A stretch of 64,000 nt of DNA, taken from the NCBI GenBank assembly GCA_965602905.1, contig CBFCZY010000003.1, positions 86,064-150,063 of the forward strand, read 5' to 3'. Positions 9,858-59,981 of this stretch are shown piece after piece. Origin of the DNA: an uncultured bacterium. Its GTDB lineage: Bacteria; SAR324; XYD2-FULL-50-16. The notes below the pieces were generated by a model. That model saw nothing but the letters and a program-made list of their open reading frames with translations. It did not search any database and was not told the origin of the DNA. The translations under genes were made by a program, and so were the position numbers. Within the stretch, counting starts at the first letter, position 1; each line of letters opens with the position of its first letter.

Positions 9858-11147
9858 TTAACCAAAGAGGATTGATCCTTCGAGGTAAAATGCTCCAGCA
9901 ATGGAACCTGTCATCAAGCAAGCGAGACTAGAGGCGATAAGAGCACGAAAACCCACCTCAGACAGCTCTCTAGTTTTAGAAGGCTCAATGGCCGCTATCC
10001 CACCAATAAATATGGATAGGCTGGCAAAATGAGCAAAACCGCAAAGAGCATAAGAAGCGATGACTAAAGAGCGGGGGTCTTGGATAGCGCCCGACTTCAT
10101 GGCTTTTGCAAGATCCATATAGGCTACAAATTCTGTAAGCACCAATCTTTCACCAATGATCCTAGAAATGGCCATAGCGTCCACTAAGGGAACCCCCATT
10201 GCCAAGGTTAAGGGGTAAAAGAGATACCCGAAAATATTACTCAGGCTCAAGTCAAAACCCATCGCCTTGATTCCTACAAACTCCCCAATTCCAGAAAGGC
10301 CCAAATCAACCAAGGCAACCAGCCCTAAAACGGCAATGAGTAGGGCAATAATGCCTGCGATCAAGTTCAAACCCGATTGGGCACCCTTGATGATGGCTTC
10401 AAATATATTGGAATCCTTCTCATAAACGGGGTGGATGTCTTCGCCTAAAGTTTCAGGTGTCTCGGTCTCAGGTAGGATGATTTTACTCAATACAATTGCT
10501 GCAGGTGCTGAAATGATAGAGGCACTGACCAAATGGCCTGCAATAGCAGGGAAAAACTCCTGTAAACTAAAAACGTAAAAAGCTAGAACATTACTGGCTA
10601 CTGTCGCCATGCCCGCTGTTAAAAGAGTGCATAGCTCCGACTTGGTCATTCCCTTTAGGTGTGGCTTAATGGTCAAGGCAGATTCAACACCTACAAAAAT
10701 ATTACTTGCGGCAGCTACAGATTCCGCCCCTGAAATACCCATAGTCTTTGTGAAGATATTGGCAAAGATTCGGATCACAAAGGGCATGATTTTAAAAAAA
10801 TAAAGGATGGAAACTAAGGCTGAGAAAAAAATGACTGAAGGTAAAGTCTGGAAGGCCAAGAAAAAGCCCAAAGAACCTTCCCCCCCTGGTGGAACAGCAA
10901 GTGGCCCAAAGACAAATTCGGCACCTTTGGTGGAAACAGACAATAGCTTCACAACCAGATTATTGATGGCCCAAAATAATTCTCGTCCTTGGGGAATCAC
11001 AAAAACAAAAAGACCCAAAGCCAGTTGAAAAGAAATTCCAACAGCAACTAATTTCCAATTGACGGCTTTAGGGTGTTTGGATAAGCCCCAAGCGATTCCT
11101 ACAAAAACTAAGAGGCCTAAGAGGCTGACAAGATTATATGGCTCCAT
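9858..11147 (-). CDS. nupC: concentrative nucleoside transporter (CNT/NupC family)
   Basis: Multi-TM protein with NupC-like N-terminal helices. The start is chosen at M16 of the tracked ORF (MEPYNLVSLLGLLVF...) to match the NupC N-terminus. Confidence 0.75.
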   Translation of the reverse strand: MEPYNLVSLLGLLVFVGIAWGLSKHPKAVNWKLVAVGISFQLALGLFVFVIPQGRELFWAINNLVVKLLSVSTKGAEFVFGPLAVPPGGEGSLGFFLAFQTLPSVIFFSALVSILYFFKIMPFVIRIFANIFTKTMGISGAESVAAASNIFVGVESALTIKPHLKGMTKSELCTLLTAGMATVASNVLAFYVFSLQEFFPAIAGHLVSASIISAPAAIVLSKIILPETETPETLGEDIHPVYEKDSNIFEAIIKGAQSGLNLIAGIIALLIAVLGLVALVDLGLSGIGEFVGIKAMGFDLSLSNIFGYLFYPLTLAMGVPLVDAMAISRIIGERLVLTEFVAYMDLAKAMKSGAIQDPRSLVIASYALCGFAHFASLSIFIGGIAAIEPSKTRELSEVGFRALIASSLACLMTGSIAGAFYLEGSILFG

Positions 11148-11628
11148 TTTTTTCCAATGCAAGGAGTTTAATTTGGGAGGGGACTCCGCCAAGTGAAAAA
11201 ACCCTAGCAGTGTCCTGATCTTTTTTTGTCACCCTATGACAGGGGATAAGGATTGGCAAGGGGTTCAAACGGTTTGCTGAGCCAACGGCACGGACGGCTT
11301 TAGGGTTACCAAGAGCCGAGGCAACATCAAAGTAGCTTTGTGTACTGCCAAAGGCAATGGTTGGAAGATACTGCCAAACCTTTTGGTAAAATGTAGGGCC
11401 TTCTAATTTGTAGGGTAGGTCAAAGTGCGTTAGGTTTCCTTTGAAGTAAGCTAAAATTTGATCCACAGCCTCAATTAAAATGGGGCTACTACTTTCTCTA
11501 TTTTTGGGTCTTGGGTTTTTAGGGTCCAGCTCACAGAGGTAAATTTTAGTGAGAGCACCATTGGTTTCTTCAATGCACAGGGGAGAGGCGAAAAATTCAG
11601 GGATGAGTAAGCTCGTCTTATTCTTCAT
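11134..11628 (-). CDS. ogt: methylated-DNA--protein-cysteine methyltransferase
   Basis: PCHRV active-site motif inside a conserved DNA-binding domain block (GSTQSYFDVASALGNPKAVRAVGSANRLNPLPILIPCHRV). Confidence 0.85.
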   Translation of the reverse strand: MKNKTSLLIPEFFASPLCIEETNGALTKIYLCELDPKNPRPKNRESSSPILIEAVDQILAYFKGNLTHFDLPYKLEGPTFYQKVWQYLPTIAFGSTQSYFDVASALGNPKAVRAVGSANRLNPLPILIPCHRVTKKDQDTARVFSLGGVPSQIKLLALEKNGAI

Positions 11629-11648
11629 TTTGGCCTCTCTGAACTGGG

Positions 11649-11873
11649 TTAAAGTTTTGCTTTGATTAGTTCTATTGCCTGAGCATCACTGGGAAACTCA
11701 CCAGTCGCTTTTTTTGAATAGAGCAATTGACCATTTAAGGTGATTTCAAAGACCCCACCAGACCCACGAATGATATTGGTCTCAAGGCTCAGCTGGTTTT
11801 TTATTTTCTCTGCCAAACTGGCAGCTCTGGGAAGGTAGTTTCAAGCTCCGCAGTATTCTAAATCAAGTGTCAT
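11649..11873 (-). CDS. SelW/Rdx-family selenoprotein; the in-frame TGA at 11841..11843 is read as selenocysteine
   Basis: ATG at 11873..11871 overlaps the ClC stop as TAATG. Translation with TGA=U gives MTLDLEYCGAUNYLPRAASLAEKIKNQLSLETNIIRGSGGVFEITLNGQLLYSKKATGEFPSDAQAIELIKAKL, then TAA at 11651..11649. The YCGAU redox motif and the GxFE(I/V)..G.L..SKK..G.FP block match SelW/Rdx. The gene is missed by ordinary ORF calling. Confidence 0.8.
11810..11824 (-). promoter_or_regulatory. candidate SECIS-like hairpin 3' of the UGA
   Basis: mRNA CUGCC-AGUUU-GGCAG: a 5-bp GC-rich stem with G/U in the loop, starting 19 nt after the UGA. Flanking AGCUG/CAGCU could extend it. This is a by-eye fold only. 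Confidence 0.25.
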
Positions 11874-13654
11874 TATTTATCTTCATCGCTGTGAACGTTT
11901 TGTAGTAATATGGCTCTGTTGTAAGCGTCCATTACATCTTTTCTATTTAAGATTCCCAAAATGCTTTGATGGTCATTGGGGTCTACCACTGGGATGGCCT
12001 CAATATCCTTAATTCCAAATTTTTGGATTGCTTCATTTAAGTTATCATGGGGTAAGAGGGTAATCAACTGGGTTTCAGCTAATTCTTTCATGACTACTAA
12101 ATGCTCCAAACCCTCTTCTAAAATGATTTCTCTAATGTCTTGCAGACTCACCACTCCTGTCATGTGGTTGTTTTTGTCTAACACAGGGTAGTATTGGGTT
12201 TTAGACTTAGGGAAGATCTTCATAAATTCAGCAAAGGTCATGCTTTCTTGGATGGTCTCAAAATCTGTGACCATCACACTTTCGGCCATGATTTTAGCCA
12301 AAATACTTTCTTCTTTTCCTGAGTGGAGCAAGATCCCCTTTCTGCTTAATTCCATACTATCTAGGCTATCGTCGCAAAGGCTTTTCGCTACCATCACCCC
12401 AAAAACTGAGGCAAACATAATGGGGATAATAACCTGATAGCTACTAGTAAGCTCAAAGAGTAAAAAAATAGCTGTCATGGGTGCATGAGTTACCGCCGCC
12501 AAAAAGGCGCCCATTCCAACTAAAGCATAGCTTCCAGGTTGGATGTTGAGATCAGGAAAAAGGTAAGATGCGATATTACCAAAGATGGCGCCAATCATAG
12601 CCCCAATATACAAGGAGGGGGCAAAAAGCCCACCGACATTTCCCGAGCCTAAGGTGATTGAAGTGGCTAACATCTTTAAAAAGATCAGAGCAAAAAAGAG
12701 CCAGAATAAGCGGTCACCGTTCCAGTTTAGGGCTAAATGAATCACTTCATAACCATCACCTAGAACTTCAAAATAAAAGATTCCTAGAGTTCCAACTAAA
12801 AAAGCACCAATTAGGGGCTTGATAATAGGGGAGATTTGCAAGGCGTCAAAGCGGTCTGAAACAGCAAAAAAGAATCTAATAAAAAATGCCCCAAGTACAC
12901 CAATGACTAGACCCAGTAAAATATAAAGAGGGATTTCAGCATAACTAGTTAAGGTATAAGCCAGTTCACCAAATGTCGGCGCAGAAGAATAATAGGCTCT
13001 AGAAATCGCAGTGGCCAAGCCTGTGGAGATAACGATCACCCCAAAGGTTTGCAGTTGAAACTGACCGATCATGATAATTTCTTGGGCAAATAACACCCCA
13101 GCTAGGGGAGCGTTAAATTGGGCCGCTATGCCCGCTGCTGACCCACAAGCGATCAAGACCTTTAACCTGTGGCTGCCCATGCCAAAGAAACGGCCGATGC
13201 TGCTGCCCACAGCCCCACCTATCTGGGCGATTGGCCCTTCCACCCCTGCTGAACCACCTGAAGAAATGGTAATGGCTGACGTAAATATTTTCACAAATAT
13301 ATTTCTAGTGGCAATGAGGCCACCCTTTAAGTGTACAGCAATTAAGAACTTGGGCATTCCATAGCCTGAGATCTCACCGGGGTATTTTTTTAAAAAGGGA
13401 ATGAGTAAAATTGCCCCTGTCATAGGAATGACAGGAAGCAAATAAGGAGAGTAAGACTCTACAAAGGGCCACATAATCCCAAAAAAGAGATAGTGCATTT
13501 GGTGGAGTAACCACCGAAAAAAGACTGAAGCAAACCCAGCACCAACACCGACAAAGCAAGCAAGAATTAACTCTATATTGGTTTCAGAGATGCGAAACTT
13601 TCCAATTAGAGGAAGCCAGGAAGCTTTGGTGAAAATCTTGGAAGGCTTAAACAT
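11873..13654 (-). CDS. ClC-family chloride channel / H+-Cl- antiporter with a C-terminal CBS pair
   Basis: GSAGVEGP and GNVGGLFAPSLYIG selectivity motifs. The C-terminal region is of CBS length. Confidence 0.85.
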   Translation of the reverse strand: MFKPSKIFTKASWLPLIGKFRISETNIELILACFVGVGAGFASVFFRWLLHQMHYLFFGIMWPFVESYSPYLLPVIPMTGAILLIPFLKKYPGEISGYGMPKFLIAVHLKGGLIATRNIFVKIFTSAITISSGGSAGVEGPIAQIGGAVGSSIGRFFGMGSHRLKVLIACGSAAGIAAQFNAPLAGVLFAQEIIMIGQFQLQTFGVIVISTGLATAISRAYYSSAPTFGELAYTLTSYAEIPLYILLGLVIGVLGAFFIRFFFAVSDRFDALQISPIIKPLIGAFLVGTLGIFYFEVLGDGYEVIHLALNWNGDRLFWLFFALIFLKMLATSITLGSGNVGGLFAPSLYIGAMIGAIFGNIASYLFPDLNIQPGSYALVGMGAFLAAVTHAPMTAIFLLFELTSSYQVIIPIMFASVFGVMVAKSLCDDSLDSMELSRKGILLHSGKEESILAKIMAESVMVTDFETIQESMTFAEFMKIFPKSKTQYYPVLDKNNHMTGVVSLQDIREIILEEGLEHLVVMKELAETQLITLLPHDNLNEAIQKFGIKDIEAIPVVDPNDHQSILGILNRKDVMDAYNRAILLQNVHSDEDK

Positions 13655-14544: not shown

Positions 14545-15303
14545 ATGAAACATATTTACCTAATCCTCTTCTTTAGCCTATTTGGGGTTGTTTGTGAAGC
14601 AGGAGGACTCGATTACCCAAGATCTATTCCCACGGCCCTAACATTAGAGTATCAACACCTTGGCAATCACAAGGAGTCTGGCTCAAGCAAAGTTGTTTTT
14701 CGTCGCACTGGCCAAGATGTTTTGGTTGTCGAAGCCCATTCCTCAGAAGATTCACAGGTGTTTTTAAAAAGAGAAAGCCGCTACAGCAGTAAAGGCCTAT
14801 TTAAAGAAAGCAGCCTCTCAGATTCGAGGTCTGACTTGAGTATGAGCCTCCTTCGCAAAGAGACAGTCTTAGATGGAAAGGTGAGGCTCCAAGGCGAAAA
14901 TTTAGTCTTGCAGTTGCCTTTAGGCCCCAGCTTGACCACCTTGGGCTTGCTTCCAAATTTTCTAGGTAACAAGCTTCAAGAATTAGAGAAATCAGGTGCA
15001 GTCATTTTCTATTTGGTACCCCCTTTAGTTGTGGCGAGGGCGGCGAAAGATGGCCTCCCCCCTTCATGGGCGAGAATCAAAATGGTGGCTACTAAGGTTA
15101 GAAATGAAGTTTTTAAATTTGATGGGAAAAACATTGCAGCTCTTCGGATTAAACTGAAACCCTTTGATTCTTTGATGGGTAGTTTTCTGCCTAAGGAAAA
15201 TCAGGAATTAGTGTTTTTACTGCCTTTAAAAGGCCCCTTTTACATTCTTGAGGGCAAAGTCAGTGGCGTAACCTACCGCCTTAAAAAGGTGACAGCTCCT
15301 TAA
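14545..15303 (+). CDS. secreted protein of unknown function
   Basis: N-terminal signal peptide (ILFFSLFGVVCEAGG). No recognisable domain. Confidence 0.5.
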   Translation: MKHIYLILFFSLFGVVCEAGGLDYPRSIPTALTLEYQHLGNHKESGSSKVVFRRTGQDVLVVEAHSSEDSQVFLKRESRYSSKGLFKESSLSDSRSDLSMSLLRKETVLDGKVRLQGENLVLQLPLGPSLTTLGLLPNFLGNKLQELEKSGAVIFYLVPPLVVARAAKDGLPPSWARIKMVATKVRNEVFKFDGKNIAALRIKLKPFDSLMGSFLPKENQELVFLLPLKGPFYILEGKVSGVTYRLKKVTAP

Positions 15304-22732: not shown

Positions 22733-22894
22733 ACCAAAATGGTCTGAACATTTCTGCCCTGTTCGTTATTGTTAGTAAAATTGAGCCTTACTCATGTTTC
22801 GGGGCTGGTCTCTGTTAGTGGTGTGCATGCCCTTTTCATTAAGGGAAGCCTAAAGCTATTATGCTACTCCCACCTGGTAATCCAGGTTCAACAT

Positions 22895-23092
22895 ACTATT
22901 AGCAAACGGCAGGGTGGTTACTTTTAAGCTACAAGATAGCTTTGAGTAGAACTCGTACTATTAGCCAAAGGTTGAGTGGTTACTAAATACCACCTTGACC
23001 ATGAGGTTAGTACGGTTGTTTTAAGCTGCAACGCAGCTTTATAAATAGTAGCCCACGCTACTAGCCATAGGCTAGGGCAGTTACTTTAAAGG
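22895..23092 (+). repeat. three degenerate tandem repeat units (ACTATTAGCnAAAnGG...GTGGTTACT...AAGCTnCAAnnnAGCTTT)
   Basis: Units lie at about 22895..22956, 22957..23059 (with an insertion) and 23060..23092. Each carries an AGCT..AGCT hairpin with compensatory changes (AGCTA-caag-aTAGCT versus AGCTGC-aac-GCAGCT). Confidence 0.6.
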
Positions 23093-28416: not shown

Positions 28417-29171
28417 TGAAAGAACGATTACAGAAAATTTTAGCTCAAGCAGGCGTGGCAAGTCGCCGTGGTTCCGAGGAATTTATTACTCGAGGCATGG
28501 TTGAAGTTAACGGAGAGATGGTTACAGAGCTAGGGGCTAAGGCCGACCCTGAAGTCGACGACATTCGTGTGAGCGGAAAAAAACTGAGACTGAATCAAGA
28601 GAAAGTTGTTTATGCGCTGTATAAACCAAAATCTGTTGTGACTACCTTGAAAGACCCAGAAGGCAGAAAAACAGTCGCTGACTATATACCCCATTCAAAA
28701 GATAGGTTATTTCCTGTCGGTAGGTTGGACTATGATGCAGAAGGTTTGATTTTACTAACCAACGATGGCGACTTGGCCCAAGAACTAATGCACCCTTCAG
28801 GGCATGTTTGGAAGGAATACCTCGTAAAAATTAAGGGAAATATCACCCAAGAAGTCATGGCTAAGTTGGCCCGAGGCCCAGTGCTAGATGGAAAAAAGAA
28901 AAAACCCTGCAAAATTAAATTGATCCACTACAAAGGCGATAAATCTTGGTTGAGTGTCAGCTTGCAAGAGGGGATAAAGCACCAGATTAAAAGAATGTTT
29001 CTTTATGAAGGTCACCCCGTTAGTAAAATTAAGCGGATCAAAATTGGCAATATCATTGCTGGTGATTTGGAGACAGGTCAAAGTAGACTCTTGACTCTAG
29101 AAGAGGTACAAGGATTAAGAGATTTGATTGCAGAAAAAAAACCTAAAAAAGTAGTAAAGAAGAAATCCTAA
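28416..29171 (+). CDS. rluB: 23S rRNA pseudouridine synthase (RluB/RsuA family, S4 domain)
   Basis: S4 N-terminus (RLQKILAQAGVASRR), the catalytic VGRLDYDAEGLILLTNDG block, and a Lys-rich tail. Confidence 0.85.
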   Translation: MKERLQKILAQAGVASRRGSEEFITRGMVEVNGEMVTELGAKADPEVDDIRVSGKKLRLNQEKVVYALYKPKSVVTTLKDPEGRKTVADYIPHSKDRLFPVGRLDYDAEGLILLTNDGDLAQELMHPSGHVWKEYLVKIKGNITQEVMAKLARGPVLDGKKKKPCKIKLIHYKGDKSWLSVSLQEGIKHQIKRMFLYEGHPVSKIKRIKIGNIIAGDLETGQSRLLTLEEVQGLRDLIAEKKPKKVVKKKS

Positions 29172-29731
29172 TGTTGAGATTTGGACTGAGCAAATTAAAA
29201 ACGCCCTTATTCAGCTTTCTACTGGTTTGCCTATTGGCTAGCCCTGCCCAAGCAGAGTATAGAGGTTATTTGATCGAAGTTTATGATCATATTTTACAGA
29301 AAAAATGGGATGCAGCCACAGGTTTTGATCCACAGCACTATGTGGTAACTCACGGCGGTGGTAACAGGCTGAGCGTGTTATTGAAGGCCACTTGGGTTTG
29401 TTACGGTGATACAGGTCACTATACTCCAACCTGCCCCATGCCCGCCGCTAAAGAACCTAAATTTAAGCTTGGTGAAGTTGTAGAAATTGGTCTATCCAAA
29501 CATATGACGGAAGGTTGGCGAGGAAAGGTGGAATTATCCCTATGGCGCAGTGACCTGAAAGCCAATGTTTACGGTATCCGCTTTGGTGATAAAAAACAGA
29601 TGTATGGCCGCTACTACGAATTCAATTTGAAAAAAACTGTTTCTGAAACACCAGCCGCCACGGAAGCGGAGGGGGAAACAGTACCACTCCAAGGCCCCGA
29701 TGCTGCTAACCCAGCCGCTCCTGCGCCATAA
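29171..29731 (+). CDS. secreted protein of unknown function
   Basis: Signal peptide ending AQA. Pro/Ala-rich C-terminus. Confidence 0.5.
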   Translation: MLRFGLSKLKTPLFSFLLVCLLASPAQAEYRGYLIEVYDHILQKKWDAATGFDPQHYVVTHGGGNRLSVLLKATWVCYGDTGHYTPTCPMPAAKEPKFKLGEVVEIGLSKHMTEGWRGKVELSLWRSDLKANVYGIRFGDKKQMYGRYYEFNLKKTVSETPAATEAEGETVPLQGPDAANPAAPAP

Positions 29732-45826: not shown

Positions 45827-47617
45827 CTAAACAAAAATAGACTGCGCTTTTAACAGAGCAATGATCTTGGCCGTAACTTCACCTTCATTTTCATGAGGTC
45901 TTACGTTCAAGTCCACTTCATATTGGGTAAAGCGATTTTCCCCAACATTGACTACGGTCAAACCAGTAGGCCCGTTAATCTGCTTTAAAAGCTCCAAATC
46001 GTAGCCATCTTCCACGGCTACAACCGTGATAAAGATCATACCAGCGTCAGTCATAAGCCTTGAAAGTTCACCGAGTCTACGGATCTCTTCACTCCTATTC
46101 CCTCCGCCTTGGGACTCAAAATCGCTATCCAAACCAAGGTTCAAGTTGGTGTAGGCCATGAAATAGGGGTTGAGTCTCATATCAAAGAGGATCTTTTCTA
46201 AGGCTGCGGCCATCTTGCGTTTACCTAGACCATGGTCACCAGTAAAAACAATAGAAGTAGCCTTATGCCCTGATTTTTCCGCACGTCTCGCAGAGTTTAC
46301 CCAACCACGAACCCAAGATTCTTCACGTAATTTTACATGTTGCTCGTCTAGGGTTTTATCTGTGGAAACCGCAGCGGTAATGATTCCACCACCTGCGATT
46401 TCATAGTCATCGACTAAAACAAAGCGGCCTGTTTGGTCGATCCTCCCTGCCAAGTCAAAAACAATGGGTTTTACGGCTTCAAAGATACATTCGGCAACAT
46501 CGTGGCGGTCCACTTGGTTTTTATCAAGGGCGCCAATATCACTGGCATCAACGATGGAAACCACTTCAATTAAGCGCACAGGTAGCCGCTTGGCTCCGAT
46601 CTTGAGCTTGTATTTTTTCCCAATGATCAAGGGCGCTTTACCCATCCAAAAAATATTGGATTTAAACCTTCTCGCTGTAATGGGTTGCTCTTGGTCTAGG
46701 CGCACCAATAATTCCCCTGGCTGCACATAAACTTGCGTTTCTAAAGTTAAACCCAAAGCTCTACCCGCCTCAGCGGTGGCTAAAGTGGGAGCGTTAAACA
46801 GCTCGATAGATTTAATTTTAGAGCGCTTCTGGGAAGGGAGGAAAATAACCTCATCCCCAACCTTGGCAACACCTGTTTGAATCGTTCCTGCAAATATCCT
46901 GCGGTCGTCACCTTCTTCTGTAAACTTGTAAACACCTTGCAAAGGCATTCGGAAAGGCAATTTAGTTTTATCGGTATTGTCGTCCTTTTCCAAAGCATCA
47001 ATCTGACCAATCAGGTGATTGCCTTTAAACCAAGTCATTTTACCTGAGGGCTTGACCATGTTTTCGCCTTGGAACCCACTAATGGGGATGAAAGCGATAG
47101 GGTCCAAGTCTAGGTTCTTCAAAAAGGCTCGGTACTCTGTTTCTGTCTTGTTGAAAGACTCTTCTGAGTAATCCACCAAGTCCATTTTATTGACTACAAC
47201 AACGACTTTTTTGAGCCCCAACATGGAAACCAAATAGCCATGGCGTTTGGTGTTTTCTTGGATTCCCTCTTTGGCATCAATGACAATCATTGCAGCTTCA
47301 GCAGCAGAGGCACCTGTGACCATGTTTTTTAAAAACTCAATGTGGCCTGGTGCATCAATGATAATATAATGCCTGCGCTCAGTTTCAAAAAAACAACGAG
47401 CTACATCAATGGTAATCCCCTGTTCTTGTTCATCCTTTAGTGCATCTAGCAGAAAGGCAAACTCAAAGGGTTTGGCGTTACGAGCGCACTGGTCTTTAAC
47501 CTGTTGTAATTTTCCATCAGGAAGGCTGCCAGTATCGGCGAGAAGCCTGCCAATGACAGTTGATTTCCCATGGTCAACATGGCCAACGGTCACAATATTT
47601 AGTCTTTCTTTTTCCAT
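45827..47617 (-). CDS. cysN: sulfate adenylyltransferase subunit 1 (CysN GTPase) fused to a degenerate APS-kinase-like C-terminal domain
   Basis: [10 protein letters not shown]1 motif, DAPGH and NKMD. The C-terminal 170 aa align to CysC, but the P-loop reads GDHGLGKRK instead of GLSGSGKS and the DGD motif is lost. The start is set at the MEKER ATG. Confidence 0.85.
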
Positions 47618-47639
47618 TTTTTTTAAGCCCCTTTTTCGG

Positions 47640-48521
47640 CTACATGTAGCCTTCACGGCGTAACGTTTCTAAACCACCACCATCTTCTTTATCTTGTGCG
47701 CGTCCGCTACGTTCGGCGATATTGGCGAATTTTCCTGTTTTTAGTTCATTGATAATCTCGTCCACATTTTTAGCTGTGGAATCTACGGTGCTAGTACAAG
47801 GATAGCAGCCTAAAGACCTACAACGAGTACCTTCACCTTGATCAAAGTAGAGGTCGATGATTGGAATTTTTTCTCGCTCGATGTATTCCCAAATGTTCAG
47901 CTCGGTCCAATCCAACAGAGGATGTATCCGCAAATGGGTGCCCTTGGCAAAGTCAGTTTTGTACTGGTTCCAAAGCTCTGGTGGTTGGTCGCCGACATCC
48001 CAATCATTTTCTTGGTCACGGGGAGAAAAAACTCTCTCCTTACTGCGGCTTCCTTCTTCATCGGCTCTCGCCCCTACAATAACCCCTGTGTAGGCGTCAG
48101 TGTTAGAATCCAGTTCGTAATCACCTTTCTCATGGTTGAACCTGTATCTGGGCCAGTTGCCAGAAAGGGTATGCTTCAAGGCTGTGGCCTTTAAATTTCG
48201 GCAGCAATTGATGCGGTCTATGTTTCCATCGGGAAAGGTTTCTTTGTTTTTTAAGGCTTCGGCATTTTCGCCGTACACCATGTTGAGTTTCCACTGGGCT
48301 GCCATTTGGTCGCGGTAGGCGATCATTGCTGGCATCTTGTAGTGAGTGTCAATATGGAGCAAGGGGAAGGGCACATGGCCAAAAAAAGCCTTGCGGGCAA
48401 GCCACAATAAAACCGTGCTATCCTTGCCGACAGACCAAAGCATAACAAGACTTTTAAAGTCCCTGTAGGCTTCACGCAAAATATGCACACTCTTGGCTTC
48501 TAGTTGGTCTATATGATTCAT
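47640..48521 (-). CDS. cysD: sulfate adenylyltransferase subunit 2
   Basis: PAPS-reductase-like fold [17 protein letters not shown]. 293 aa. Confidence 0.9.
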
Positions 48522-48569
48522 TTTTAATTCTCAGTTTCTAGACATTTTAGTCTTAAATTAATTTCAATT

Positions 48570-49274
48570 CTATTTTACAGGTCGGTTGTGTAGGCCACAT
48601 TCTTTGTGTTCTGGCGCTTCCCACCACCACCTTCCGCTTCTAATATCTTCTCCCTCGCTCACGGCTCGGGTGCAAGGTGCACAGCCTATGGAAGGAAAAC
48701 CTTGGTCGTGAAGACGATTATAAACCACCTTGGTTTCTTTCACCTTGGCCCAGAGCTCCTCTTCTGAGCAGGCAAACAAAGGATTGATTTTATATATCTT
48801 ATTGCCCGCATCCCACTCAATGGGTTCCACGTCTGCACGGGTTGCACCTTGGCCAGCCCTGAGGCCAGTAACCCAAGCATCCAAACCACCGAGCACACGT
48901 TGCAAGGGGTTAATCTTTCTGATCTTACAACAGAGCTTGCGATTTTCTAAGGAATCATAAAAAAGATTTGGCCCTTTGTTGGCAATCATCTCTTCTAGCT
49001 CCCCAGTATCGGGAGTATAAACCTCATAGGTTACGCAGTAGCTAGACATAGACCGTTGCATGGAATCATAAGTCTCTTGGAACAAGCGCCCTGTATCTAG
49101 CGTGAAAATCCGAAAGTTAGGGATATCCGCTACAAAGTGAGTGAGCAATTGGTCTTCCACACCAAAACTGCTGGCAAGGGCGACTTTAGTGCCAAAGGTT
49201 TTGTTCGCCCAAAGGAGGATATCCTTTGGGCTTAACCCTTCCAGTTGCTTTTTATAGTTTTCAAGCTGATCCAT
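48570..49274 (-). CDS. cysH: adenylylsulfate (APS) reductase, thioredoxin-dependent, Fe-S type
   Basis: The CC pair (KLCCKIRK) plus CAPC and ECGLH is the Cys set that ligates a 4Fe-4S cluster in APS-specific reductases. The start is set at the internal ATG because the tracked start is TTG. Confidence 0.8.
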   Translation of the reverse strand: MDQLENYKKQLEGLSPKDILLWANKTFGTKVALASSFGVEDQLLTHFVADIPNFRIFTLDTGRLFQETYDSMQRSMSSYCVTYEVYTPDTGELEEMIANKGPNLFYDSLENRKLCCKIRKINPLQRVLGGLDAWVTGLRAGQGATRADVEPIEWDAGNKIYKINPLFACSEEELWAKVKETKVVYNRLHDQGFPSIGCAPCTRAVSEGEDIRSGRWWWEAPEHKECGLHNRPVK

Positions 49275-49276
49275 TT

Positions 49277-51655
49277 TTAGACCTGTGCCTTTTTGATTAC
49301 TACAGCCCAATGACCATCGTCGGCCTGTTCTTGGCTTAAGATTTCATGACCCTCCAACTCAACGGAGCCTGGAACGTTTGCAATGGGTTCCCCGTCATCG
49401 AGTAAAATTTCTAAAATTTCACCTACTTTCATCGGGTCCAGTGCAATTTTTGTTTTCACAAAGTTCATCGGGCATTTTACGTCCCTAAAGTCTTTATAGA
49501 CAGCTCTTTGTTCCAAACTTACAGCAGTACCTTCACTAATGGCTTCTTCCTCTTCTTGGTTCTGGATGAGGTCATCCAAATGAAAGCGGAGGCTATCGTC
49601 CATGCTGTGATACAGATCTAGCATTAATTTTGCTAAGTCCAAAGCTGGCTGCAATTGGCCAGATACCTTATGATCAGAAGCGCTTAAAGCCGACTCAACC
49701 AATGATTGGAAGTCCTTTGAAACAATGCGACCGCCGATGAAGTCTTTAATAAAGGCTTCAAATACTTGGGTGTCGCTTTCCGCTTCAATTCCTTGGGTTA
49801 CGAGCAAGGACCGAGAAGCATGGAGGGTTAAGCGGTAAGCTGCTATGTCCTCTGGAATTTCTTTAACTTCCAAAGCCTTCTGGATGCTTCTGATTTCAGT
49901 GAAATCATAATCAATCATATCGTATAGGCCAGCGGAGCATTCTGCCTTCTTACCCTTGAGTAGGCTAAACCTGCTGTCATCAGACCAGTCATGGTAATAG
50001 TCGGCATTAGCATCTAACTCAGGCATTGCCTTGTCATACTTTTGAGCCAATTCTTTGATCATAAAGAAGGCAGGCTCACTTTTTAAATATTCTCTAAAAT
50101 CGCCCAACTCAGCTTTGTTGGCTTTGTAGTGCTCAAAGAAATCACCAACTAAAGCGGGGATATCCTTGGCCGCAGCCGTTGCTGCCCTTGCTGCCGTTTC
50201 AGTAGTACCGTCACCTAAGTGACCACCAAGCTGAATGACATAGGCTGGGTAAAGATGCTGGTTGCGCTTTAGTGCCTTGCCGAAAAAACCAATGTCAGCG
50301 ACATGGTTATTGGAGCAAGCGTTTGGGCAACCTGAAACATTAAAACTAATTCCAGCAAATTCTTCTGTATCTAAGTTTCTTTTGATCAACTCTGTCTGCA
50401 CAGCCTCAGTTAAAGGTCGGGCTAACGTTACCCCAAGAGTACAGTTGGCGGCACCAGTACAGGCGATCATGCTTCCAAAAAAGACAGGTTCAAAAGCGCC
50501 TGTGTCTAGGGTCTTTAAAAAATTAAATACATTGCCTAGGTATTCTGCTGGGATGTTTCTCAAGTTAAAGTTTTGGTCAGGGCTCAGGCGAATTACATTT
50601 TCACCAAAGTCCTTTAAAAACTCACCCATTTTTTTAGCATCGGAATTTTTTAAGATACCAAACTTTAAAGGGATACGAACTTGAGATAGTCCCTCTTGTT
50701 TTTGACCCTTTACATATCTTTGTTTCCACAGATTAAAGGCTTCTAAATCACTCGCTTCTTCAACTTTAACTGCCGCTGATACTTGGGCCTCATTTGGGAA
50801 ATCAGACAAGTCTAATTCTAGGTCTCGATCCTGTTGGAGCAGGGCGTAGTATTTGTAAAAGAGAGCCGTAAAGTCTTCTTGGCCCATGCGTTCTACAAGC
50901 CATTTTATCTTGGCTCTATTGCGTTGTTTCCTGTTTCCATTTTCGTCAAAAAGAACCTTGATGGCCTTGGCTACATAATAGACTCGGTGCTCAGGGACAA
51001 AGTCCAACAAGACTTTACCATACTTAATGGCTGAGCCCGTACCGCCACCGACATAGACCTTAAAGCCCTTTTTTCCATCTTGGATTTTTGCAAGGAAACC
51101 TAAGCAGGTTAGGGTGGCCTTTGCCGAGTCGTTCTTATTGGCAGAAAAACTGATCTTCAGCTTTCGGGGCATGTTATAGGAATCTGCTTCTGCGATGAAT
51201 CTAGTGGTTAGCGCCATGGCGTAGGGAGCTACGTCAAAAACATCGTCAGGGTTCACGCCTGAGTCATAAGATACAGACATGTTTCTGGTAGTGTTTCCAC
51301 CGCCAGCTCGACCTGAAAGGCCAACAGATTTGAGTTCATTGGTGACTGTGATCAAGTCTTCCAACTTTAAATAAGAAAGTTGGAATTCCTGTCTCGTCGT
51401 GGCGTGAAGGCGGTCGCATGCAAATTTCTCAGATACCTCAGCAATTTTGACAAGTTGGGCAGGGGTCATAGCGCCTTGGGTGGCCCTTGCTCTCATCATA
51501 AAGGTTCCAGATTCTCTCTGCTCATAGATTCCGTGTGCAACACGAATGGCTTTGAACTTAGGTGGGGCAATTTTGCCCTGGTTAAAATCTGCAATTTGCT
51601 CTTTAAACTTGGCTATGTCTTGGTCCAAAGTTTCTGGTAGCTGGTAAAAATTCAT
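49277..51655 (-). CDS. assimilatory sulfite reductase hemoprotein (siroheme/4Fe-4S) fused to an unassigned middle domain and a C-terminal TusA-like domain
   Basis: Siroheme/Fe-S Cys motifs CTGAANC and SGCPNAC. The C-terminal 70 aa (DVKCPMNFVKTKIAL...GHEIL...VVIKK) resemble TusA. 792 aa. Confidence 0.85.
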   Translation of the reverse strand: MNFYQLPETLDQDIAKFKEQIADFNQGKIAPPKFKAIRVAHGIYEQRESGTFMMRARATQGAMTPAQLVKIAEVSEKFACDRLHATTRQEFQLSYLKLEDLITVTNELKSVGLSGRAGGGNTTRNMSVSYDSGVNPDDVFDVAPYAMALTTRFIAEADSYNMPRKLKISFSANKNDSAKATLTCLGFLAKIQDGKKGFKVYVGGGTGSAIKYGKVLLDFVPEHRVYYVAKAIKVLFDENGNRKQRNRAKIKWLVERMGQEDFTALFYKYYALLQQDRDLELDLSDFPNEAQVSAAVKVEEASDLEAFNLWKQRYVKGQKQEGLSQVRIPLKFGILKNSDAKKMGEFLKDFGENVIRLSPDQNFNLRNIPAEYLGNVFNFLKTLDTGAFEPVFFGSMIACTGAANCTLGVTLARPLTEAVQTELIKRNLDTEEFAGISFNVSGCPNACSNNHVADIGFFGKALKRNQHLYPAYVIQLGGHLGDGTTETAARAATAAAKDIPALVGDFFEHYKANKAELGDFREYLKSEPAFFMIKELAQKYDKAMPELDANADYYHDWSDDSRFSLLKGKKAECSAGLYDMIDYDFTEIRSIQKALEVKEIPEDIAAYRLTLHASRSLLVTQGIEAESDTQVFEAFIKDFIGGRIVSKDFQSLVESALSASDHKVSGQLQPALDLAKLMLDLYHSMDDSLRFHLDDLIQNQEEEEAISEGTAVSLEQRAVYKDFRDVKCPMNFVKTKIALDPMKVGEILEILLDDGEPIANVPGSVELEGHEILSQEQADDGHWAVVIKKAQV

Positions 51656-57205: not shown

Positions 57206-58222
57206 ATGCACCAATATTTAGAAATGGTTCGAAACGAAATCGAATCTGCCGCTGGACAAGAAAAATACTTAGCTAGTGCCCTTTTTCTCAAGGTATTTAG
57301 AGAAGTACCCTATGAGGATGACGGTGATTTTGAACTTACAGACAAAGCGGGATTCGAAGAAATTCAAAATCGTGTAACCAATATATTAAGGTCTCCTAGT
57401 GACTTTGACCCTAAAGAAGAGTTGCTTTCATGGCAGATTGCCGTGCTCCGTCAAATGGCGAGAGACTTCTATAACATCTGGGTGGACTATAAAGACGAGC
57501 GTTTTGGTGCAAGTGATATCTTTTCTGATGGTGAATCTTGCATGTCTTTAGAGGCTTCATTAGAAAAAATTAACGAAGATCCAACTGAAAACTATTCGGC
57601 TATCTTGGAAATTGAACAGACCTTAACTAAATTGGCTACCAGCCCAACTCAGTTTGTAACTGAGCTAGATAAATTTTGGTCTTTCAAGGGTGCCATCAGT
57701 TCTAAAGGGGATGGAGTTACAGCCTTTACGCAAAAGAGAATTGATTTAGAAAAGAATGGAACTATGATCGCTGCTGTTGTTCGTGGTATGAAAGAAGTTT
57801 CAAATAGATGTGAGCGAAATGCGAGACAGCTTCCCGGTGCTCACCATTTACTATGGATCAATGCTCATATTTTAGTTGAATCCTTCACCAATGCTTTTGA
57901 GTCCTTTTTGGAATTTGAATACTTGGATAATATTGAGCTATCTTTGCACCACTGGTTAGATACACTCTTTCCACAGCGCATGATTGCAAACTTGCCAAAC
58001 CCTTTGCACCAAAGCCCAACACATCACGGGATCATTGCTAATTTGACGCAAGCGACCCAGTGCATGGTGCAGTATGTTGCCCATGGCAATCAAGCTTTTG
58101 ACCAGAGAGATGAAATCATTGTCCCTCACGTCCTTGAAGCCTTAGAGCGAGTAAAAAGAATTTCTTTGAAGAATATCACGGCTTTGCAAAGACAAGAGAT
58201 GCAGACCAAAGCATTCTCTTAA
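57206..58222 (+). CDS. hypothetical protein (338 aa)
   Basis: Long ORF with no recognisable domain. Confidence 0.5.
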   Translation: MHQYLEMVRNEIESAAGQEKYLASALFLKVFREVPYEDDGDFELTDKAGFEEIQNRVTNILRSPSDFDPKEELLSWQIAVLRQMARDFYNIWVDYKDERFGASDIFSDGESCMSLEASLEKINEDPTENYSAILEIEQTLTKLATSPTQFVTELDKFWSFKGAISSKGDGVTAFTQKRIDLEKNGTMIAAVVRGMKEVSNRCERNARQLPGAHHLLWINAHILVESFTNAFESFLEFEYLDNIELSLHHWLDTLFPQRMIANLPNPLHQSPTHHGIIANLTQATQCMVQYVAHGNQAFDQRDEIIVPHVLEALERVKRISLKNITALQRQEMQTKAFS

Positions 58223-58406: not shown

Positions 58407-59981
58407 ATGCTGGAATTTTTTTCCTTGGCTCAAGATAAATCAGGAAATTTGGAAAGAGTATCCTATAAATTAGGTCTCTTAGAGTTACTTTTTGCCTTTT
58501 TATCGCTAAATGAAAGCTGCAATGGGGAAAAAAGACAGATCTTGAAAAATATCCAAGCTGGCCTTGAAGAGCATCTAAAATATTCTGACCCTAATGTAAG
58601 GCGTGAAAAAAACTTCCGTTTTGCTACCAGTCGTTGGCTAAGATTAAAGGATCTGGCTAATTTTATTTTAAGCGACGATGGCAAGGCAGACTTGCGAGTT
58701 AAAATTGCTAGCATCCTAGTTCAGGCCTCTTCCATTGAAAATAAATGGGATAAAATTAAGCAAACCCTGACTGCCGATCTCAATGAAGAAAGCTTTACCA
58801 GCCTTTCTCAAGCATACTCCTTTGAAACGGGGGAAATGCACCCAGTTTTAGAGTGGATCGCCCTTTGTTTTTTAGAGCAAGACCCAGAGCCACCACCTCC
58901 AAATTTAAGATTAGAACTGGTGCGAGGTGAGTTCCCTAAAAGCTTTTGGGCCGCCAGAAAAGGCTCTTACCATAAGCCCAATCCCTTTTGGTTGCCAAAA
59001 AATCCACTTTGCCATGCCGTAAATTTGGGGCAAGAATTGACCTGTCTTTTGTTGCAGACAGAAAAAACATTACAAAAAATTAACAACAATAGCCCCTTGG
59101 GCAGACCCAGTTCAATCACTTTAGACTTACCCGGTGCCAAAGAGGAAAAGGGACAGCTTTCTTTGATCCCTGAAACACCAGCGGAAACCTTTTTAAAACT
59201 CCAAGGCTTGATCGAAAAAAAGTTAGGGGCCAACGGAGTTCGGCATTTATTTGGAATTTTACGACAGGTTGCAAAGGCAGAAAATACCAGTTTCTTCTTT
59301 GACTATTTCTCCCATGCCGAGTTGTTAGGTTACCACAAAGACCAAGTCAATAAATACGAGACAGAAGAGAAAAATCTTGAAGAGGTGCTTTCTATTTTAA
59401 ATAAAGTAGAGGTTAAGCGCCGCTACATTAAGGAAAAGCCCATGCTGGAACGAGCGACTCCACTTTTTAATGGAATGACCAAGCATTACCGAGGTATTTC
59501 GAAAAAGGTGGCAGGCCAAGAGTTGGCTCTTGATGCTTTTGTGCTTGGTGATGGTACCAGTTTAAGGCTCGGTGCTCATCTGAACTTGGTGCCCATGCGT
59601 GCCTTTTTGGAAGACACTAAAAAACATAAATTTTTGCTGCCCCTTGCAGCCTACTTGGCTGGCTCTTGGGTTTTGGAATTTAACAGTAATCGTGGGCACT
59701 TACAAAAAAACACGAAAGAGCTTTTGGAAGGTTGCGCCCTAAAAATTGCCCCCCAAGCAAAAAGAACCATTTTAACAAAGTTGCAGTCTGAGCTAGATTA
59801 CCTGAAAGAAAAGGCCTATGTTGGATCAATAAAAGCGCTAAAGGTGGAAGCATTAGAATCTAGTGCAACTGACCCTTACTTGCAAAAATTTGAAATCACG
59901 CCACCACCTGCCCTCTTGCAAAACATGCAAGCTTCCTATGCAGATGCTGGCCACGGGGCAGCCTCGGGTATGCTCTTTTAG
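58407..59981 (+). CDS. hypothetical protein (524 aa)
   Basis: Long ORF with no recognisable domain. Confidence 0.5.
   Translation: MLEFFSLAQDKSGNLERVSYKLGLLELLFAFLSLNESCNGEKRQILKNIQAGLEEHLKYSDPNVRREKNFRFATSRWLRLKDLANFILSDDGKADLRVKIASILVQASSIENKWDKIKQTLTADLNEESFTSLSQAYSFETGEMHPVLEWIALCFLEQDPEPPPPNLRLELVRGEFPKSFWAARKGSYHKPNPFWLPKNPLCHAVNLGQELTCLLLQTEKTLQKINNNSPLGRPSSITLDLPGAKEEKGQLSLIPETPAETFLKLQGLIEKKLGANGVRHLFGILRQVAKAENTSFFFDYFSHAELLGYHKDQVNKYETEEKNLEEVLSILNKVEVKRRYIKEKPMLERATPLFNGMTKHYRGISKKVAGQELALDAFVLGDGTSLRLGAHLNLVPMRAFLEDTKKHKFLLPLAAYLAGSWVLEFNSNRGHLQKNTKELLEGCALKIAPQAKRTILTKLQSELDYLKEKAYVGSIKALKVEALESSATDPYLQKFEITPPPALLQNMQASYADAGHGAASGMLF

Follow-up and report, generated by a model that had tools for sequence, protein, structure and literature searches.

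The minus strand at positions 11649..11873 of the stretch analysed here—64 kb of DNA from an uncultured bacterium of the SAR324 cluster (assembly GCA_965602905.1, contig CBFCZY010000003.1), hereafter the window—encodes a member of the bacterial SelW-like (Rdx) family. The family is already known; the member itself is unannotated. Judging by its sequence and by those of its relatives, this gene, here called selW, is very probably a genuine and functional gene of a SAR324-cluster bacterium, with a 74-residue product that contains selenocysteine (Sec) encoded by an in-frame UGA. A hidden SelW/Rdx selenoprotein gene had been proposed at this place by an earlier, sequence-only reading of the window, and the proposal is supported by profile matches, by a TGA at the same codon in 80/80 relatives, by a covarying hairpin, and by the predicted fold.

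The selW gene

The features of the gene itself are the following.

11649..11873, minus strand: coding sequence (CDS) of a probable SelW-like (Rdx family) selenoprotein, from translation, profiles, the AlphaFold2 model and the comparison of two SAR324 genomes
11841..11843, minus strand: in-frame UGA, codon 11, probably read as selenocysteine (the U of C-G-A-U); TGA in 80/80 relatives and in loci L001, L002, L091 and L092
11850..11852, minus strand: TGC, Cys8, partner in the CxxU redox motif; TGC or TGT in 80/80 relatives
11810..11824, minus strand: predicted bacterial selenocysteine insertion sequence (SECIS) hairpin, stem CUGCCA/UGGCAG of 6 bp, loop GUU; from folding and comparative data

Read on the minus strand from 11873 to 11649, the gene consists of an ATG, 73 sense or UGA codons, and a TAA—74 codons including the Sec-UGA. 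Its letters begin ATG ACA CTT GAT TTA GAA TAC TGC GGA GCT TGA AAC TAC and end AAA CTT TAA. The translation, which agrees letter for letter with the one first proposed, is MTLDLEYCGA, the TGA, then NYLPRAASLAEKIKNQLSLETNIIRGSGGVFEITLNGQLLYSKKATGEFPSDAQAIELIKAKL, with KAKL at its C-terminal end; the TGA at 11843..11841 is the sole in-frame stop. A gap of 245 bp without a called open reading frame (ORF) had been described between the flanking ClC and ogt genes; the gap is real, but its size is 244 bp (11629..11872), and the ORF list does hold one entry at the locus, a single 55-amino-acid ORF starting with TTG at 11649..11816. In public gene calls the gap is empty on two other contigs that carry the selW locus (L085 and L092), and on a third, short contig selW is called with W at the TGA, that is, under translation table 4 (P0001, L001). 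Gene finders miss selW because its selenocysteine codon is written as a stop codon.

Family membership and predicted fold

For the profile searches, C was put in place of U in the selW protein. Its scores exceed the curated cut-offs of both Pfam Rdx (PF10262; E=2.4e-18, 66.5 bits against a cut-off of 22.6, over profile positions 2-73 of 74) and NCBIfam TIGR02174, 'CXXU_selWTH' (64.1 bits against 34.2), which bears out the Rdx/SelW homology claimed from sequence inspection. With the Campylobacter-type SelT/SelW/SelH equivalog NF041051 it scores 77.9 bits, below the cut-off of 88, and it falls outside that group. The downstream 55 amino acids match Pfam Rdx on their own (E=2.6e-10). Sequence searching also finds the solved structures 2fa8, 2oka, 2ojl, 3dex, 2obk and 2p0g, human MIEN1 (2ljk), and mouse SelW (2npb), and the CxxC/U motifs are aligned in both alignments displayed (2fa8 and 2ljk). 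Cys8 is nearly invariant in protein alignments of the family. The CGAU motif had been described as that of animal SelW; its G-A spacer does match the engineered mouse chain 2npb (VVYSGACGYK), the native mouse motif being CGAU.

The AlphaFold2 model, computed from an alignment of 54 sequences, has a mean predicted local distance difference test (pLDDT) score of 97.4 and the topology beta1(3-8)-alpha1(14-28)-beta2-beta3-beta4-alpha2. In a Foldseek comparison with the PDB, the model matches the bacterial SelW-related structures 2fa8, 2ojl, 2obk and 2p0g with template modelling (TM) scores of 0.90-0.93 and root-mean-square deviations of 1.1-1.4 A over 74-77 columns; MIEN1 follows at 0.75, mouse SelW at 0.68, and thioredoxins are distant matches. 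The predicted fold is the thioredoxin-like beta-alpha-beta-beta-beta-alpha arrangement of the Rdx family. Thioredoxin-fold proteins carry their redox motif at the beta1/alpha1 junction, and it is there that Cys8 and Sec11 lie in the predicted model, between strand 3-8 and helix 14-28.

Conservation of the UGA codon and the genetic code

A phmmer search of 1.84 billion representative proteins returned 391 relatives, and motif classes were read in the best 150: approximately 79 carry CxxW, 28 carry CxxC, and approximately 25 are N-terminally shortened, with starts immediately behind the Sec codon. In all three CxxW cases for which the DNA was read (L001, L002 and L091, all short contigs), the W is a TGA translated under table 4. 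At the DNA level, a scan of a species-level genome collection gave at least 557 relatives, and the best 80 loci, from 80 species genomes, were examined; TGA stands at aligned codon 11, and TGC or TGT at codon 8, in 80/80. These loci span Desulfuromonadales, Acidobacteriota, Planctomycetota, Eisenbacteria, Zixibacteria, and others. The orthologues had been named as the check on whether this codon is TGA or TGC/TGT, and their answer is TGA in every one of the 80—none terminates there, and the protein is conserved on both sides.

The coding signal reaches upstream of the UGA: heterozygosity in the eight codons before it is 0.36, 0.31 and 0.58 at codon positions 1, 2 and 3, which is a coding pattern, and in the 30 nt before the start codon it is flat at 0.70. 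An in-frame UGA conserved in orthologues, Cys in its place in 28 homologues, and protein-level conservation of both flanks together form the pattern of a selenoprotein gene. A close comparison is offered by a second SAR324 genome, the metagenome-assembled genome (MAG) GCA_033791585.1 (JASJGK010000219.1; L092), where selW is 85% identical to the window copy in DNA, with 22 synonymous and 6 non-synonymous codon differences and the TGA unchanged. Codon comparisons indicate that purifying selection acts on both sides of the UGA. The window uses the standard code 11; approximately 40 long ORFs are intact, most of them with Pfam matches, and 4/37 long ORFs end in TGA. When the intergenic gaps of the window were scanned for ORFs reading through one TGA, no other credible selenoprotein candidate appeared. 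The conservation of the TGA, the upstream coding signal and the use of code 11 together rule out a nonsense pseudogene, a 10-codon leader with a shortened product, and a code in which UGA means Trp; the case for each deserves to be set out.

The first of these, a decaying pseudogene in which the second active-site Cys codon (TGC/TGT) has mutated to TGA and no functional product is made, draws on the single-base distance between TGC or TGT and TGA, on the existence of CxxC homologues (the 28 noted above), and on the lack of a called gene here in public annotations. It is effectively refuted, with a probability close to nil: the TGA recurs at the same codon across phyla, the SAR324 pair preserves the N-terminal 10 and the downstream 63 codons with a 22 to 6 excess of synonymous differences, and the TGA is followed by a conserved, covarying hairpin.

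Alternatively, the real product could be the 55-amino-acid ORF from the TTG at 11816 (or nothing at all), the UGA ending a 10-codon leader and the remainder being an Rdx fragment without a redox motif. This ORF is on the mechanical ORF list, matches Pfam Rdx alone, and has counterparts in the approximately 25 N-terminally shortened database entries; those entries, however, are best explained by gene callers restarting after the TGA. Moreover, the TTG lies inside the hairpin loop and 3' arm without a ribosome-binding site, and the fragment would lack beta1 and the start of alpha1 from a fold that the full-length model predicts with pLDDT 97. Upstream of the UGA, the 10 codons show the conservation of coding sequence, and Cys8, encoded there, is invariant in the 80 relatives. 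We regard a 55-amino-acid product as very unlikely.

The UGA might also be decoded as something other than Sec, either as Trp under genetic code 4 or by near-cognate read-through with Trp or Cys in a cell without Sec machinery. Public calls do translate this gene with W (P0001), and two SAR324 single-cell genomes have been reported to lack Sec machinery (PMC5029168). Against this, code 4 is excluded by the other window genes, which are intact under code 11 and some of which end in TGA, and the W calls come from short contigs under table 4, with the TGA verified in L001, L002 and L091. The residue is the second position of CxxC/CxxU, where Trp would abolish the redox chemistry, and a conserved hairpin with a G-U loop stands at SECIS distance, the target of SelB in the bacterial SECIS (bSECIS) model (PMC13188914). 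Such decoding is highly improbable, and Sec remains the preferred reading of the codon.

One homologue has TGA at both redox-motif positions: L091:268-492 (ENA ERZ25083853 NODE_105292, P0009) reads TAC TGA GGA ATG TGA AAC, that is, U-G-M-U, and the usual hairpin region follows. The same double TGA is present in P0005. By its sequence, the L091/P0009 homologue may be a diselenide UxxU variant; the Global Ocean Sampling (GOS) paper reports UxxU for the Prx-like family only (PMC2398784), and a 2026 review lists SELENOW-like proteins with a single Sec (PMC13188914).

A SECIS-like hairpin downstream of the UGA

A short hairpin, CUGCCA-GUU-UGGCAG, follows the UGA, its stem starting 16 nt and its loop 22 nt after that codon. 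The earlier reading had noticed this GC hairpin and placed it 19 nt after the UGA; the hairpin is present, but the distance of 19 nt to the start of the stem holds only when counted from the first base of the codon, the U, and is 16 nt from the A. The 60 nt from the UGA onward align without gaps in 81 sequences, for which RNAalifold predicts one hairpin, with columns 20-25 paired with columns 29-34—the same columns in 81/81. Compensatory double changes occur in 5/6 of its pairs, the loop base G26 never varies, and conservation of U27 is 90% or more. In an 8-pair version 85.8% of cells are paired, compared with 22-50% in controls with the 3' arm displaced by 1-3 columns, and none of 500 shuffles reaches any of the five observed hairpin measures.

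Published bSECIS criteria specify a loop of 3-9 nt, a stem of 4-16 bp, a G in the first two loop positions, usually then G or U, a UGA-loop distance of 16-37 nt, and a minimum free energy (MFE) of -7.5 kcal/mol or lower (PMC13188914). The selW hairpin falls within all of these limits, with its GUU loop, 6 bp, 22 nt and -8.4 kcal/mol. Folding of the RNA downstream of the UGA, which had been suggested as a check, thereby yields a hairpin that is conserved in position, covaries, and agrees with the bSECIS description.

Points against selenocysteine decoding

Several observations weigh against selW as a Sec-encoding gene, and they concern the hairpin, the family, and the organism. The hairpin alone is no more stable than shuffled sequence (z = -1.2 and -0.68), and in single-sequence folding its 67-nt context prefers another fold (z = +0.93); because single-sequence stability is not significant, it is the comparative data alone that give the hairpin its significance. 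No SECIS-type Rfam match was found at either the gathering or a permissive E-value threshold, and the weak Rfam matches at the locus are chance snoRNA or rRNA matches. The hairpin also overlaps the conserved peptide A-A-S-L-A, so its conservation is partly at the protein level. At the level of the family, the 2026 review describes prokaryotic SELENOW-like proteins as predicted with high confidence and does not place them among the experimentally shown families (PMC13188914). As for the organism, the 64-kb window contains no tRNA, tRNA-Sec, selA, selB or selD (selA, selB and selD sought by comparing ORFs of at least 150 amino acids with Pfam); the absence had been noted in the sequence-only reading and is confirmed by the tRNA and Pfam scans. 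Finally, the 'orphan SelD' organisms of a 2016 survey, in which SelD is the one Sec component and selenoprotein genes are lacking, include two single-cell genomes of SAR324 (PMC5029168 Table 1).

A purely protein-level origin of the hairpin's conservation is disfavoured by the choice of codon at Ser19, by the partial loss of the hairpin in most of the Cys forms compared, and by the synonymous changes that flank it in the SAR324 pair. The Ser19 codon is AGU (or GGU for Gly), not UCN, in almost all Sec forms; among the Cys homologues with the same peptide, a small sample of five, it is AGC in 3/5. The hairpin is complete in one of these five, retains 5/6 pairs in another and 4/6 in the other three—a mixed result, which makes this control suggestive, not decisive. 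The two SAR324 genomes share an identical hairpin and differ by synonymous changes in the flanking codons 14, 15 and 22.

The Cys form that keeps the full hairpin (GCUGCCA-GUC-UGGCGGC) is L090:501-794 (Logan SRR13394437), with a CSEC motif and TGT; part of the hairpin is lost in the four other Cys forms. From its sequence, L090 may be a recent Sec-to-Cys conversion, and its gene adjoins one for a DsbD-like membrane protein.

Among window genes, that for CysNC (45827..47656), a protein in which an EF-Tu-like GTPase domain is fused to an APS-kinase domain, is not selB. The flanks of the 53 related loci scanned contain no tRNA-Sec. The 2016 survey (PMC5029168) is the only paper found that mentions both SAR324 and selenocysteine, and two SAR324 assemblies, the window and L092, contrast with it in carrying a Sec-UGA gene with a conserved SECIS. 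Since a conserved UGA and a SelB-type hairpin occur in both, incompleteness of the single-cell genomes is the likelier explanation of the orphan SelD label. The sequence evidence that the SAR324 organism decodes selenocysteine is indirect. Should SAR324 truly be without selA, selB and selC, this gene with its conserved UGA and hairpin would be decoded by a non-canonical route, for example by another factor that uses the selenophosphate of the orphan SelD; we consider this very improbable, and a normal Sec-decoding lineage much more likely. If it were true, the selW locus would offer a way into the unexplained 'orphan SelD' trait of selenium use.

Genomic context and proposed expression

The genes on either side of selW, and its junction with the first of them, are as follows.

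11873..13654, minus strand: ClC chloride channel/antiporter with CBS domains, upstream and in the same direction; Pfam Voltage_CLC E=4.5e-91, and CBS
11871..11875, minus strand: TAATG, overlap of the ClC stop and the selW start; from the sequence and the ORF ends
11134..11628, minus strand: ogt, O6-methylguanine-DNA methyltransferase, downstream; Pfam DNA_binding_1 E=4.7e-24

The start codon had been reported to share a nucleotide with the ClC stop, and indeed base 11873 belongs to both the ATG (11873..11871) and the TAA (11875..11873). On the other side, 20 nt separate the selW stop from the ATG of ogt, which has GAGAGG in front of it. No Shine-Dalgarno sequence was seen upstream of the selW start, and no terminator-like site between the genes on the minus strand; in a promoter and terminator scan, counts equalled the shuffled expectation. 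Co-transcription and translational coupling, the latter being likely at the TAATG, are suggested by how closely the genes are packed, with the one-base overlap, the 20-nt spacer and the lack of a terminator-like site.

At 90% identity, the window ClC protein clusters with MDX2471280.1, 'chloride channel protein [SAR324 cluster bacterium]', and the gene order of the window is the same in L092: MatE, gshB, aat, a 252-amino-acid gene without a Pfam match (on the opposite strand), dapF, clc, an uncalled gap, ogt, nupC, and a hybrid kinase. The uncalled gap, 272 bp in this case, holds MKLDLEYCGA-TGA-NYLPR...KAKL, and the clc stop and selW start are 2 nt apart. An unclassified MAG (L010) keeps dapF-clc-selW with a ClC 70% identical; there the clc stop and selW start are 26 nt apart, and selW has its own ribosome-binding site, AAGAGG. 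Among the related loci compared, the order dapF-clc-selW occurs only in SAR324 and L010, and no neighbour genes are common across phyla. Because the neighbours are not conserved across phyla, we infer no functional link of selW to ClC or Ogt.

Among loci L006-L084, those of the Desulfuromonadales type have, in approximately 15 genomes, a recurring neighbourhood of their own, made up of three gene clusters, which is lineage-specific and not seen in SAR324: a gene for a protein of approximately 220 amino acids lies approximately 12-40 nt upstream on the same strand, a gene for one of approximately 300 amino acids comes next in divergent orientation, and one for approximately 490 amino acids lies approximately 1 kb downstream.

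We propose the following course of expression. The gene would be transcribed together with its neighbours, as dapF-clc-(selW)-ogt-nupC, and its translation would probably start by coupling to ClC termination at the TAATG overlap. The ribosome would then meet the UGA at codon 11, where the hairpin within the CDS, with its loop 22 nt downstream and beginning G-U, may act as the SECIS; following the Escherichia coli paradigm, it would recruit SelB-GTP-Sec-tRNA(Sec), and selenocysteine would be inserted in place of release by release factor 2 (RF2). The product would adopt a thioredoxin-like fold in which Cys8-Gly-Ala-Sec11 spans the junction from the end of beta1 to the N-terminus of alpha1, and most likely cycles between selenol/thiol and selenenylsulfide states as a small thiol-dependent oxidoreductase.

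Comparison with known selenoproteins

Bacterial SelW-like proteins have been known since at least 2005 and are among the commonest marine selenoprotein families. In the Sargasso Sea study this already known family was the most abundant; its 48 Sec genes stood beside 7 Cys homologues, and it was described with CxxU and a small SECIS loop containing G (PMC1088965). In the GOS data it was again the most abundant, with 427 genes (PMC2398784). SelW-like selenoproteins are also reported in the genomes of Geobacter, Desulfotalea, Symbiobacterium, and others (PMC1794560), and the 2026 review includes 'SELENOW-like protein, PF10262, CxxU' among high-confidence predicted prokaryotic selenoproteins (PMC13188914).

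The window gene resembles this family (PF10262, formerly PF05169; TIGR02174) in its size of approximately 75 amino acids, in the CxxU after beta1, in the GGxFE and SKK...FP blocks, in the in-frame UGA with a small hairpin carrying a G in its apical loop, and in its marine lineage. Nothing essential differs: the window copy is in SAR324, is joined to a ClC gene by TAATG, and has a minimal SECIS stem of 6 bp, whereas many relatives have 7-8 bp. It has every family feature that could be tested and no distinguishing one.

The solved bacterial Rdx proteins (2fa8, which is Atu0228, 2ojl, 2obk, 2oka, 2p0g and 3dex) share the predicted fold, and 2fa8 matches at E=1.6e-8 with the redox motif aligned. 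They differ in that 2fa8 has CxxC, in deposited chains of approximately 100-108 residues, and in their identity of 24-30%. Animal SELENOW (mouse 2npb) and MIEN1 (2ljk) have the C-G-A-U spacing and the thioredoxin-like fold in common with the window protein, but mouse SelW is distant (phmmer E=1.6e-4, TM 0.68). The SECIS of eukaryotic SelW sits in the 3' untranslated region. Eukaryotic elements have a GA quartet; in contrast, that of the window lies inside the CDS, directly after the UGA (PMC13188914). Compared with bacterial elements (the E. coli fdhF paradigm and the bSECISearch consensus), the window hairpin is within the limits for loop, stem, G-U, spacing and MFE; however, it is very short, with a 3-nt loop (5 nt with the A-U closing pair open), and there is no bulged U in the predicted hairpin.

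The gene matters for annotation and because it marks SAR324 as probably using Sec, and it brings no new mechanism with it. At least three assemblies of this lineage lack a real gene in their public annotation, and the calls that do include it put Trp at the TGA, short contigs having been read in genetic code 4. The problem is systematic and hides selenoproteins—approximately half of the full-length representatives of the family carry the CxxW artefact, and approximately 25 more start after the Sec codon. The gene also speaks indirectly for selenocysteine use in the SAR324 clade, which is abundant in the deep ocean, and SAR324 may contribute part of the SelW-like signal that is dominant in surveys of the marine selenoproteome.

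Other features of the window

The only real Rfam match in the window is a full-length 6S (SsrS) RNA gene at 22748..22924 on the plus strand (92.7 bits against a gathering score of 46.4), in a gene-poor stretch between the ccm genes and a phosphoglycerate mutase gene. On the minus strand, 49277..51655 encodes a 792-amino-acid protein that resembles sulfite/nitrite reductases (NIR_SIR domains) and ends in a TusA sulfurtransferase domain, an unusual fusion; the gene belongs to a sulfate-assimilation cluster, together with PAPS_reduct genes of the cysH-like and cysD-like kinds and a cysN-cysC fusion (45827..49310). The ORFs at 14545..15303, 29171..29731, 57206..58222 and 58407..59981, all on the plus strand and of 252, 186, 338 and 524 amino acids, have no Pfam match at E<=1e-5; the position of the 252-amino-acid ORF (14545..15303) is conserved in other SAR324 contigs.

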